A DNA stretch of 64,000 nt, taken from positions 1-64,000 of the forward strand of contig JBBQSO010000004.1 in assembly GCA_038213805.1 (NCBI GenBank). The letters run 5' to 3'. Of this stretch, positions 9,923 through 15,245 are shown piece after piece. The notes below the pieces were generated by a model, which saw only the letters and a program-made list of their open reading frames with translations, was not told where the DNA came from and searched no databases. How positions within the stretch are numbered: position 1 is the first letter of the stretch; the number at the start of each line of letters is the position of its first letter. Made by a program: the position numbers and the translations under genes. This DNA is from Planctomycetota bacterium (GTDB lineage Bacteria > Planctomycetota > UBA11346).

Positions 9923-9964
9923 GCAGGAATGGTAGGGGCTGAGGTGTGGACCCAAGGGCCTAGG

Positions 9965-10006
9965 CCCTAGACCCTGGACCCTAGACCCTAGACCCTAGAC
10001 CCTGGA
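9965..10006. repeat. Heptamer tandem repeat (CCCTRGA)x6, with inverted copies at 10101-10118
   Basis: Read directly; reverse complement CTAGGGT repeated at 10101-10118. Confidence 0.9.
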
Positions 10007-10046
10007 CCTCGGTATAGGGTGTTTCGGTATCCCTCACAGGTCGCGT

Positions 10047-10086
10047 TAAAATACGCAGCGCGAGGGATCATCCTCGCGCTGCGTAT
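10047..10086 (-). terminator. Intrinsic terminator downstream of pgk
   Basis: 15-bp perfect stem ATACGCAGCGCGAGG/CCTCGCGCTGCGTAT followed by TTT on the minus strand. Confidence 0.75.
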
Positions 10087-10129
10087 CGCGTATTCCGCGA
10101 CTAGGGTCTAGGGTCTAGCGTCTCACGTC

Positions 10130-11377
10130 TCACGCGTCCGACAGCGCCGCGATGCCGGGCAGTGCCTTGCCTTCGAGCAGTTCAAGCGAGGCGCCGCCGC
10201 CGGTCGAACAGTGGGTGACCTTGTCGTCGGTCTTCCACTTGGCTGCGGCGGTGGCGGTATCGCCGCCGCCGATCACGGTGATGGCCCCCGCCTGGGTGGC
10301 CTTGACCACCGCCTCCATCGCGGCCTTGGTGCCGACCGCGAACTTGTCGATCTCGAAGACGCCGAGTGGGCCGTTCCAGATGATGGTTCTGGCGCGCGCG
10401 ATGACCGCGGCGTTCTGCGTGACGGTCTCCGGACCGCAATCGAAGCCCTCCCAGCCGGCCGGGATGCCGGTCTTGTCGGTGGCGGCGCCGACATTGGCGT
10501 CGGGTCCGAACTTGTCGCCGGTCACGAAGTCGACGGGCAGGTGGATCTTGACGCCCTTGGCCTCCGCCTTGCGCAGCAGGTCGGCGACGATCTTGGCGCC
10601 CTCCTTGTCGAACAGGCTGTTGCCGATCTCCATGCCGAAGCAGATCTTCTTGAAGGTGTAGGCCATGCCGCCGCCGATGATCATCTCGTTGACCCGGTCG
10701 AGCAGATTGCTGATCAGCTGGATCTTGTCCGCGACCTTGGCGCCGCCGAGGATGGCCAGCACCGGACGCTTGGGGTTGTCCAGGACCTGGGCGAAGGCGT
10801 CGAGCTCCTTCTTGAGCAGGAATCCCGCCGCGCGCTGCGGCAGGGTCACGCCGACCATCGACGAGTGCGCGCGGTGCGCGGTGCCGAAAGCATCGTTGAC
10901 GTAGACGTCGCCGAGCTTGGTCAGCGAGGCGCGGAAGGCCGCGACCTTGGCCGGATCGGCCTTGGTCTTGGCGCCGGTCTCCTCGTCCTTGATCGAACCC
11001 TCCTCCTCGATGTGGAAGCGCAGGTTCTCGAGCAGCGCCACCTCGCCGGGCTTGAGCGCGGCGCACCCCTGCTCGACGTCCGCGCCGACGCAGTCATCGA
11101 AGAACTTCACCGGCCGGCCGAGCAGCTCCGCGACTTTGGCCGCGATCGGACGCAGCGAGTACTTCTCGACCTTCTTGCCGTCGGGCCGGCCGAGATGCGA
11201 CATCAGCACCACCGACGCGCCCTGGTCCAGGGCGTACTTCACCGTGGGCAGGGCCGCGACGATGCGCTGGGTGTTGGTGATGGCGCCGGTCTTCTTGTCC
11301 TGGGGGACGTTGAAGTCGACGCGCATGAGCACGCGCTTGCCGGCGAGCTGGAGCTGATCGATGGAGAGCTTGGGCAT
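10130..11377 (-). CDS. pgk: Phosphoglycerate kinase (eukaryote-type sequence)
   Basis: [45 protein letters not shown]. Confidence 0.98.
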
Positions 11378-11538: not shown

Positions 11539-12594
11539 ATGACCGTGGTCCTGGGCATTGAAAGCAGCTGCGACGAGACCGCGGTGGCGCTGGTCCAGGA
11601 CGGGCACGCCGTGCTCGCCGAGGCGATCGCCAGCCAGGCCGACGATTTCGCGGCCTGGGGTGGCGTGGTGCCAGAGCTCGCGGCGCGCGGCCACGTCGCG
11701 GCCCTGCCCGGCCTGGTCCAGCGCGTGCTCGACGCCGCCGGACTGCCGCTGGCCGCGGTCGGCGCGGTCGCGGTCGGTGCGTGGCCGGGGCTGATCGGCA
11801 GCCTGCTCACCGGCGTCACCGCGGCCAAGGCCATCGCCATCCGCCGCAGTCTGCCGCTGGCGGCCATCGACCACATCCAGTCGCATCTCGCCGCCGTCCA
11901 CCTCGGCCGGCCGGAGGTGCCCTACCCGCTCGTCGGTCTGGTCGCCTCCGGCGGGCACAGCCACCTGTACCGCTGCACCGGCCCAGGCGCCCTCGAACTG
12001 ATCGGCGGGACCATCGACGACGCCGCCGGCGAGGCCTTCGACAAGGCCGCAGCCACCCTCGACCTGGGCTACCCGGGCGGTCCCCAGGTCGACCACCTCG
12101 CCGCCACCGGCGACCCCCGCGCCTTCACCCTGCCGCGCAGCTTCCTCAAGGACGACACCCTGCGCCTGAGCTTCGCCGGACTCAAGACCGCCCTGCTCTA
12201 TCAGGTGCGCGGCCCGCTGGGGCGTGATCCCCTGACGCTCTCCGCCCAGGGTGTGCGCGACGCCTGCGCCAGCTTCCAGGCGGCCGTGGTCGACTGCCTG
12301 ACCGGCAAGCTGCGGCTCGCGTCGCGCCGCCACGGCGTGCGCGCCATCGCCGTGGGCGGCGGCGTCGCCTGCAACCGCGGCTTGCGCGCAGCGCTCGCCG
12401 CGTTTGCCATCACTGACGGCCTCACCCTGCTGTTGCCCGAGCCACGTCACTGTGCCGACAACGCCGCGATGATCGCCAGTCTCGGCCATTTCCAGGTCGC
12501 GCGCGGCGACCTCGCCGGCCCCGACCTTGCACCCCTGCCCACCGGCAGCGCCGGTCCGCGCCGTTTTTCTGCGCAGCACGGAGTGAACCGCTAG
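11539..12594 (+). CDS. tsaD: tRNA N6-threonylcarbamoyltransferase
   Basis: [44 protein letters not shown]. Confidence 0.96.
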
Positions 12595-12893: not shown

Positions 12894-14120
12894 TCACTTG
12901 GGATGGTAGTCCTGGCGCACGTACTTCATCAGCTGGTCCGACGTCATGGCCTGCACCTGGAACTCGCGGGCGTTGTCCTGCTCCTTGTCGGAGCGGTCGC
13001 CGGCGACCAGGATGTCGACTCCCGGGCTGAGCTTCTCGCGCACGACGCCGCCCGTCTGGCGGATGAAGTTCTCGAGGTCCTCCTTGGTGTGGGGGGACTT
13101 GTTCTTCTTGGGATCGTCGAACTCGCCGGTGACCACGAAGACCTTGGGCCGGGTGGTGCTGAACACCGGATTGCCGAGATTGTCGTTCTTCGACAGCGGG
13201 AAGGCGCGGTTGTCGACCACCGACAGCACGCGGGCGGTGGCGATCTGGGCCTTGACCTCGATGACCTCGATCATGCCCTTCTCCTTATAACGGCCGCGCT
13301 CAAGGTTGAAGACCTCGAGGAGCAGGCCCGGGAAGACCCGGTCGGAGCTGCCGAGGTTGATCACCACGTAGGGCGAGCCGGGATTGACCTCGAGGATGTT
13401 GCCGACCGAGTCGAGATCCTTCAGCCAGTGCAGTTCGAGCTCGAGCAGCTGGCGGATGCGGTCCTCAAGCTGGCCGATCTTGGTGGCGCGGCGGCTGAAG
13501 TCCTCGCGGTTCTTGCGCTCGGCGGAGTCCTTCTCCTTGCCCAGACCGTCGATCTGGGTGTTCAGGCGGCTCTGGTCCTCCTGGAAGGCGGCCTCCTGCT
13601 CCTGGATCTTCTGCAGCTCCTTCTGGAGCTGCTGCTGGCGCTGCTGGATCGCCTCGTCGAGCTTGGGGTAGGCTTGGCGCGCGTCGCTGTCGTGCTCGGC
13701 CTTGAGGCCATCGATGCGGTCCTTGCTCGCGCTGACCGTGGCCAGGCCGAGCTTCCACACGCTGTCCATCAGCGGCTTGCCGTCGATGTCCTTGGTCTGC
13801 GCGGTGGCCACGCCGGACAGCACCTTGCCGTCCGACCCGTAGTAGAAGCGGTATTCATTGAGGTGCAGGTCGGCGCGCTGGATGCCGCGGCGGCGCGAGG
13901 CCAGCGCGGATTGCGCGGCGGCGATCTTGTTGCGCAGATCCGTGCTCTCGGTCATCAGCGCGTTCAGGGTGATCTTCTGGCCGTTCGGCTCATCGGGGTT
14001 GCCCTCGGTGATGGCCGTGATCTGCCCGCTCTCGTGGATGACGAGGAAGGTGAAGAGCAGGGTCACGAGCACCAGCACCACCAGTATGCTGATGAGCGCG
14101 GGATGGATGCGTCCGGCCAT
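12894..14120 (-). CDS. TM + coiled-coil + beta-barrel + BRCT-like domain protein (paralogue 2)
   Basis: N-terminal TM, Q/E/K heptad region, VVINLGSSDRVFPG, C-terminal VVTGEF...IRQTGGVVREKLSPGVDILVAG. Confidence 0.75.
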   Translation of the reverse strand: MAGRIHPALISILVVLVLVTLLFTFLVIHESGQITAITEGNPDEPNGQKITLNALMTESTDLRNKIAAAQSALASRRRGIQRADLHLNEYRFYYGSDGKVLSGVATAQTKDIDGKPLMDSVWKLGLATVSASKDRIDGLKAEHDSDARQAYPKLDEAIQQRQQQLQKELQKIQEQEAAFQEDQSRLNTQIDGLGKEKDSAERKNREDFSRRATKIGQLEDRIRQLLELELHWLKDLDSVGNILEVNPGSPYVVINLGSSDRVFPGLLLEVFNLERGRYKEKGMIEVIEVKAQIATARVLSVVDNRAFPLSKNDNLGNPVFSTTRPKVFVVTGEFDDPKKNKSPHTKEDLENFIRQTGGVVREKLSPGVDILVAGDRSDKEQDNAREFQVQAMTSDQLMKYVRQDYHPK

Positions 14121-14129
14121 GGGTGTTCC

Positions 14130-15245
14130 TTACTGCTTGCTGCGCGAGAAGTCGCCGAGATGGAAGAGCTGGCTCTGGATGAGCTGCTCCTCGCTGAGGA
14201 TGCTGATGCCGAGCTTGATCGCCTGCTGCAGGGCAGCATCGGAACGCTCGCCCGCGACCAGGTAATCCGTGTTCACCGACAGCTCAGCATCGTAGCGGCC
14301 GCCCGATTCGGTGATGAAGCGGCGCAGCTCGTCCTTGCTGAACTGGGAGAAGTCGCCACGGATGGCGAAACCCTTGACCTTCTCGGGGTCGTAGACCGGG
14401 TTGAACAGGCTGTCATTGGGGATGAACGGGTCGTTGGCGTCGGTCTCTTGGAGCACGCGCCCGACCGAAATCATCTCCTCGACGCGGGTGATCTCGATGG
14501 CGCCCTTGACGATGAGCTTGCCGCCGCGCCGGTTGAAGACGGTGAAGCGCGTGCCCTTGCGCAGGTTGTGCTTCTGGCCGCGGTTGATGACCACGAAGCC
14601 CTCGCTGGCGCTGGCCTGGACGATCTCACCCTTGCTGTGGATCTCCTTGGAGTCGATCTCGCGCTGGCGGATCAGCTCGCGCACGCGGTCCTCAAGCTGG
14701 ACGATGCGGTCGTCGAGGTCCTTGTTCTCCTTGCGGCCCTTCTTCTTGATGCCTTCGACCTCCTGCTTGAGGTCCTCGATCTTCTTGCGCAGCTGGGCAC
14801 GGCGGTCGTCGAAGTCGCGCTCGTTGGCGTGGGCGCGGGTCTCCTCCTGGGCGAGTTCGCCGCGGCGCTCCTTCATCTCCTTCAGCTTGTCGGCTGCTGT
14901 GGAGATCTCCTTGTCGATGTCCTCGGTGATGCCCTTGAGCGACACCTGGTTGCTGGCCACCAGACGCGCGACGTCGTCGATGGTCTGCTTGTCGTCGGCC
15001 TCGAGATCGTGGGCGAGCTGGACGCGCGCGCCGATCTGCTGCTCCAGGGGCTGCTTGGCGGCCTCCAGCTCGGCGGCGTACACGCGCAGGACCTTGATGT
15101 CGGCCTTGAGCTGCTCGTGCTGCTCGTGCAGCCCGGCCTTCTGCGCATGGCGGTACAGGAACAGGCCGAAGGTCGCCGCGGCGGCGAGCGAGAACACCAC
15201 GAACAGGCCGACCAGCCAGGCTGGCGTGCGTTGGCTATAGTCCAT
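14130..15245 (-). CDS. TM + coiled-coil + beta-barrel + BRCT-like domain protein (paralogue 1)
   Basis: N-terminal TM, long coiled coil, VVINRGQKHNLRKG, C-terminal ITESGGRYDAELSVNTDYLVAG...AIKLGISILSEEQL. Confidence 0.75.
   Translation of the reverse strand: MDYSQRTPAWLVGLFVVFSLAAAATFGLFLYRHAQKAGLHEQHEQLKADIKVLRVYAAELEAAKQPLEQQIGARVQLAHDLEADDKQTIDDVARLVASNQVSLKGITEDIDKEISTAADKLKEMKERRGELAQEETRAHANERDFDDRRAQLRKKIEDLKQEVEGIKKKGRKENKDLDDRIVQLEDRVRELIRQREIDSKEIHSKGEIVQASASEGFVVINRGQKHNLRKGTRFTVFNRRGGKLIVKGAIEITRVEEMISVGRVLQETDANDPFIPNDSLFNPVYDPEKVKGFAIRGDFSQFSKDELRRFITESGGRYDAELSVNTDYLVAGERSDAALQQAIKLGISILSEEQLIQSQLFHLGDFSRSKQ

Follow-up and report, generated by a model that had tools for sequence, protein, structure and literature searches.

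A resident eukaryote-type phosphoglycerate kinase in an uncultured family of Planctomycetota

How does a planctomycete come to carry a phosphoglycerate kinase (PGK) closer to that of animals and fungi than to that of bacteria? An earlier note on the 64,000-nucleotide stretch of Planctomycetota DNA analysed here (the window) had offered two answers, an old eukaryote-to-bacterium transfer or a bacterial sister clade of eukaryotic PGK. The origin of the eukaryotic glycolytic enzymes is an open question, and Santana-Molina et al. 2025 (PMC11976288), in the passages that concern these genes, name Planctomycetota–Verrucomicrobiota as potential donors of the PGK, G6PD and RPE of LECA; PGK is among the cases that favour PVC bacteria over the mitochondrial and archaeal partners as the source. 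The gene and the part of it that first draws attention are:

10130..11377, minus strand: pgk, encoding a 415-amino-acid phosphoglycerate kinase that belongs to the eukaryote-type clade (profile and structure-sequence matches, active-site residues)
10910..11014, minus strand: 35-residue loop H122-G156, which carries the eukaryote-type insert (alignment and sequence)

The open frame and every segment quoted in the earlier note agree with the translation. The protein matches PF00162 from end to end (505 bits, profile positions 1-379, curated Pfam cut-off 27), and all 17 active-site and motif positions checked are identical to those of a vertebrate PGK1 (row P0480), including D21/N23, R38, H61, R64, R120, R169, K214, D217, K218, N335, E342 and G371-T374; by sequence comparison the basic patch for 3-PG and the nucleotide-site residues are intact. 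The other checked positions are assigned the roles usual for PGK. Those of PGK Asp23, Asn25, His62, Arg65, Arg170 and Asp218 are given in the relevant part of PMC7729029, which describes PGK as a two-domain, hinge-bending enzyme that interconverts 1,3-bisphosphoglycerate and ADP with 3-phosphoglycerate and ATP. From its intact active site we predict that the host protein works as such an enzyme, with two domains and a bending hinge, and performs the ordinary glycolytic/gluconeogenic reaction. No fused triosephosphate isomerase domain is recognized by the bifunctional PGK-TPI model NF010569, whose match reaches 494 bits against the 883 required and spans profile positions 1-393 of 645, and the host tpi lies on a contig other than that of pgk. 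A second pgk, bacterial-type included, for which the earlier note had advised looking, was not found by PF00162 profile search of the 5.5-Mb genome (90.3% complete); as the sole copy found, the gene at 10130..11377 would therefore carry the housekeeping role.

The surroundings of the gene on its 116-kb contig comprise:

9299..9925, minus strand: DNA-3-methyladenine glycosylase (MPG), downstream neighbour of pgk (score above curated cut-off)
9947..10123, no strand assigned: intergenic region past the pgk stop, with inverted arrays of a 7-nt repeat (repeat and fold analysis)
11542..12594, plus strand: tsaD, bacterial t6A transferase subunit, divergent upstream neighbour (TIGR03723, 352 bits, cut-off 296)

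Both flanking proteins thus score above curated cut-offs, and the third-position GC content of pgk (0.94) lies within the 0.88-0.95 of five other window genes and GAPDH, bearing out the earlier note's view that codons are host-like and neighbours bacterial; the host PGK is confirmed as a real, resident, eukaryote-type PGK. Separate from the PGK finding, the intergenic arrays enclose a perfect 15-bp hairpin at 10051-10086 (fold z -9.6), and a 14-mer of the 7-nt repeat occurs in 110 copies at about 46 places in the genome, making the arrays at 9947-10123 a candidate dispersed repeat family; an Rfam search of the window returned one tRNA only. Further along, 12894-14120 and 14130-15245 (minus strand) encode adjacent, paralogous-looking membrane/coiled-coil proteins, both ending in a weak match to the C terminus of NAD-dependent ligase, a region we presume to be BRCT-like.

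Comparison with solved structures supports the likeness described in the earlier note. With the host PGK as phmmer query against the PDB, entries that we take from their codes to be human PGK1, yeast and Plasmodium scored 597, 536 and 482 bits, whereas the best presumed bacterial entry (1vpe) scored 389 and the presumed E. coli entry (1zmr) 228. Identity to matches of the eukaryote profile has a median of 66.6% and a maximum of 69.7%, against about 47-54% to ordinary bacterial PGKs. Between the ENLRF and DVY motifs the host has 35 residues. Of 32 eukaryote rows (one unparsed), 27 have 34 there, and of 23 ordinary bacterial rows (three unparsed), 14 have 19. The earlier note's statement that typical bacterial PGK lacks the insertion is thus true only approximately: 6 of the 23 ordinary rows, and also the Bacteroidales locus L038, have an insert of another kind, 32-41 residues long, in that position, so that the sequence of the insert is diagnostic and its length alone is not. 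Scattered along the protein are 17 columns common to eukaryotes and bacterial eukaryote-type PGKs, and rare in ordinary ones; the host fits 15 of them.

The gene is a family-wide possession. Among the matches listed, the closest named relatives of the host PGK are Planctomycetota MAGs at 78-82% identity. Eukaryote-type PGK is present in 22 of 24 genomes of the same genus or family (21 intact, one split over two contigs; 66-95% identity to the host), the two without a match being 62% and 68% complete. Among 301 evenly sampled Planctomycetota genomes, it occurs in all 18 from the host family and, in full form, in just one of the 283 outside it (G061), three more being intermediate, all of family f43. 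Elsewhere it was found in 13 of 151 Verrucomicrobiota (the phylum of an Opitutaceae genome), at 587 bits or more, and in 14 of 41 Fibrobacterota (the phylum of a Fibrobacter genome), at 583 bits or more, with five further intermediates and one fragment. Of the best 80 GTDB loci among the matches listed, themselves a sample, 37 are eukaryote-type, by title 30 Verrucomicrobiota, 3 Planctomycetota (one of them Gemmataceae), 2 Fibrobacter, 1 Accumulibacter and 1 'Bifidobacteriaceae'; all five genomes checked from these loci have just one PGK. So patchy a distribution (1/283 Planctomycetota outside the host family, plus three chimeras, and 13/151 Verrucomicrobiota) requires many losses or transfers among bacteria. 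In the loci titled Bifidobacteriaceae (L030, CAYUGC010000057.1) and Accumulibacter (L016, NZ_JAVTWB010000258.1) the gene adjoins tpi, and because both sequences group with those of Verrucomicrobiales/Fibrobacter, either the gene was passed between bacteria or the records are mis-binned. Planctomycete families f25 and f9 (for example G048, G155, G171, G032 and G094) gave weak PGK matches only (E about 1e-18 to 1e-29), which, in genomes otherwise complete, suggests a PGK that is very divergent or of a different type.

Genomic context differs between the groups. In the host family, MPG and/or a gene that we take from its sequence to be galE-like flanks pgk at 13 of 24 loci, and none of these 24 loci, which are short, shows gap or tpi. 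In Verrucomicrobiota, gap and/or tpi lies within about 4 kb of eukaryote-type pgk at 24 of the 25 loci checked (25 of 30), an arrangement that spans three groups of the phylum.

Two profile searches and a search of representatives supplied the eukaryotic sequences for phylogeny; 680 collected domains were reduced to 83 rows (32 eukaryote, 28 bacterial eukaryote-type, 23 ordinary), with eight chimeras left out. Those eukaryote rows that have names come from animals, choanoflagellates, fungi, oomycetes, dinoflagellates and a gregarine, while 11 of the 32 are treated as eukaryotic without a taxon name, with no secure representation of Amoebozoa, Metamonada, Discoba or Rhizaria; the outgroup, chosen by similarity to the host PGK, is without identified Alphaproteobacteria, Cyanobacteria or Archaea. 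Trees were built under the site-heterogeneous model LG+C20+F+G4 (PMSF) unless another method is named. Log-likelihood gaps for 83 rows are approximate because free and constrained searches ended before convergence; a 36-row subset, stripped of long-branch eukaryotes and of the insert columns, was run to the end. Among the matches were eukaryotic PGK fusions (P0125, P0328, P0129, P0404), namely dinoflagellate PGK-TPI and PGK-enolase, PGK-HIT and GAPDH-PGK.

Eukaryotes and eukaryote-type bacteria form one clade (100/99 with 36 rows and no insert columns; SH-aLRT 100 with 83 rows), which each half of the protein recovers separately at 99-100. The earlier note had counted branching among ordinary bacterial PGKs against its reading; the host protein branches with eukaryotic cytosolic PGK. 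At the base of the clade the 36-row tree shows a three-way split into a group that contains dinoflagellates (100/100), the main bacterial group, to which the host PGK belongs (81/88), and three host-family sequences (L098, L101 and L102) with opisthokonts and oomycetes (90/90). The nearest ordinary PGKs in the outgroup are planctomycete (98/84 and 97/94).

Approximately unbiased (AU) tests bear on the direction of descent. Across 44 root positions on the 83-row set, three roots lie within 0.5 lnL; one of the three, tied for first place, separates the main 24 bacteria from all other sequences (delta lnL 0.13, p-AU 0.85). The test also tolerates roots within the bacteria (six of the eight such branches tried on the best tree, p 0.08-0.45) and on some eukaryote branches, and it rejects roots at or within opisthokonts and oomycetes. 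Monophyly of eukaryotes is not rejected, with AU p values of 0.28 for the whole protein (36 rows), 0.70 for the C-half and 0.26 for the N-half, but appears in only 6% of bootstrap trees (36 rows); monophyly of the bacteria is not rejected either (p 0.36, 36 rows), and a strict tree with both groups monophyletic is borderline rejected (p 0.046 and 0.005 for two topologies). When the host PGK clade was regrafted on a fixed backbone, placement with animals, vertebrates, holozoa, choanoflagellates, fungi, opisthokonts or oomycetes was rejected at p<0.01 (animals 7e-10, fungi 1e-4, opisthokonts 0.006), and basal positions were not rejected. Because such placements fail, the gene was not transferred from an animal or fungus.

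The history of these genes is complicated by chimeric PGKs, in which a eukaryote-type N-domain with its insert is joined to an ordinary bacterial C-domain:

L113, L114 and L115 (genomes G067, G162 and G223, planctomycete family f43): chimeras
L177-L181, L023 and P0131: chimeras

Over residues 250-300, true members share 58-63% identity with the bacterial eukaryote-type group and the eight chimeras examined share 27-37%, while the N-halves of the chimeras are as close to it as those of true members. Quick LG+G4 trees of each half assign the N-halves to the eukaryote-type clade with support of 99, also when the insert is removed; among C-halves, those of the f43 chimeras group with their own family's ordinary PGK, L116 (98), and those of the Fibrobacterota type with L107 (96), L178 and L181 being placed by FastTree only. 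From these sequences we infer at least two independent domain swaps near the hinge. Weaker mosaicism may also touch the host lineage, because its subgroup falls with eukaryotes in the C-half C20 tree (88) and with the main bacteria in the N-half tree. The three host-family sequences noted above (L098, L101 and L102, from G023, G015 and G021; also L112, from G061) constitute a second eukaryote-type lineage, which sits at the same galE-linked locus; the AU test rejects a tree in which L098, L101 and L102 join the main clade of their own family (p about 2e-6).

What history would produce this pattern? That an ordinary bacterial PGK came by convergence or slow evolution to look eukaryotic, gaining its insert independently at an indel-prone loop, has a precedent of sorts in the unrelated 32-41-residue inserts at the same site in other bacteria, but it is ruled out by the insert-free tree (100/99) and the half-protein trees (99-100), as well as by the 17 diagnostic columns spread over the protein, and we give it hardly any credence. 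The best solved-structure matches, which are vertebrate PGK1, might suggest that the gene came recently from an animal or fungus or that the assembly is contaminated with eukaryotic DNA; kin in 22 of 24 family genomes, host-like GC3, conserved bacterial neighbours and the AU rejection of every animal, fungal, opisthokont and oomycete placement rule this out, and leave it extremely improbable. We consider it probable, though well short of certain, that the clade grouped with eukaryotic cytosolic PGK was born among PVC bacteria and is sister to, or the source of, LECA's PGK. The clade takes in the host Planctomycetota family, Gemmataceae, part of the Verrucomicrobiota and Fibrobacter; it would have arisen in PVC bacteria, spread among bacteria through whole-gene and half-gene replacement, and passed its gene to a stem eukaryote before LECA. 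In favour stand the best-tied root on the main 24 bacteria, the basal bacteria of the half-protein trees, the planctomycete affinity of the nearest ordinary PGKs and the gap/tpi setting in Verrucomicrobiota; the patchy distribution, the scarcity of eukaryote monophyly among bootstrap trees and the borderline rejection of the strict tree count against.

The opposite direction, from an early eukaryote (a stem form or deep unsampled protist) into a PVC bacterium, where the gene replaced the native pgk and then spread in Planctomycetota, Verrucomicrobiota and Fibrobacter, strikes us as unlikely, if by no means far-fetched; a second such transfer may have entered part of the host family. Some eukaryote rows are indeed basal in the best 83-row tree, where two long-branch rows treated as eukaryotic (P0129, P0149) fall below the bacteria and four planctomycete sequences fall inside the eukaryotes, and a FastTree of 358 rows nests all eukaryote-type bacteria within eukaryotes. 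Yet these basal rows sit on long branches, which a distant outgroup tends to attract, and we discount the FastTree result because its eukaryote rows are mostly dinoflagellates and long-branched 50%-cluster representatives; with long-branch eukaryotes removed, bacteria are basal in both half-protein C20 trees, and across the C20 trees so pruned the base is either bacterial or left open. Entry from a eukaryote would also fit the second lineage's position beside opisthokonts and oomycetes (90/90), its exclusion from its own family's main clade, and the mobility among bacteria evident from the patchy distribution and the chimeras. No identified crown donor, however, passes the AU test save, weakly, the dinoflagellate-containing group, beside which the main bacterial clade is not rejected (p 0.12), and eukaryote-type pgk occupies a canonical gap/tpi neighbourhood in three Verrucomicrobiota groups. 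Of the earlier note's two answers, then, transfer from an animal or fungus falls away, and the bacterial sister clade is favoured, though the AU tests do not separate it from a very early eukaryote-to-bacterium transfer. Bolder, and to us doubtful, is a more specific version of PVC origin, in which no living group is closer to the donor of eukaryotes' glycolytic PGK than the host family, which would keep two old lineages at the galE/MPG locus, one of them (L098, L101, L102) directly beside opisthokont and oomycete PGK, with the N-domain swapped at the hinge into ordinary PGKs at least twice.

Other host enzymes, among them those assigned to the same donor, were compared by PDB scores only. No PGK-like gap appears for TPI, for RPE (best 192, 189 and 176 bits; 170 for 3ovp, which we take to be human RPE) or for G6PD (best 415 and 355, then 310 for entries presumed human). 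The host's only GAPDH match (L183:1000-2043, G000:C52), encoded apart from pgk and tpi, has as its nearest solved structure a kinetoplastid glycosomal GAPDH (467 bits), the next non-glycosomal entry scoring 435.

The gene is less surprising in that PVC bacteria and Fibrobacter carry its type widely and the link has already appeared in print (PMC11976288). A table in that paper labels the LECA PGK group 'B-U', which we read as a donor phylum left undecided by its authors. PVC or Planctomycetota are recurrent sisters of LECA genes in bioRxiv 10.64898/2026.05.08.723234, and Planctomycetota are recurrent sisters and a major early donor in PMC13468126, PGK being absent from the main text of each; the portions consulted of PMC6198282 and PMC12525153 added nothing on the eukaryote-type PGK clade. 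With the PVC link to eukaryotic PGK known since 2025, what is still of interest is the family's second lineage and the naturally occurring domain-swap chimeras: a limited literature search, covering few subscription papers, found no report of the insert signature or of PGK chimeras, and no description of a second lineage beside opisthokont/oomycete PGK. What the host gene contributes is an uncultured family in which the type is present throughout, which may narrow down the donor, and the half-and-half chimeras warn that whole-gene PGK trees mix two histories.

Set beside known systems, the host PGK shares with eukaryotic cytosolic PGK (human PGK1, yeast PGK; the LECA orthogroup pgk_K00927-LECA of PMC11976288) the PF00162 fold family, the active-site residues, a loop of 34-35 residues, about 65-70% identity and one clade at 100/99; it differs in lying on a bacterial contig, in host codon use and in belonging to a bacterial subgroup outside opisthokonts and oomycetes. 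Ordinary bacterial PGKs (such as 1vpe, 1php and 1zmr) have the same predicted reaction and catalytic residues, but are set apart by identity of about 45-54%, a 19-residue loop in most, and an intervening stem of about 0.39 changes per site. The Planctomycetota–Verrucomicrobiota PGK group, as presented in the relevant passages of PMC11976288, involves the same phyla and the same enzyme, an association recovered independently here.
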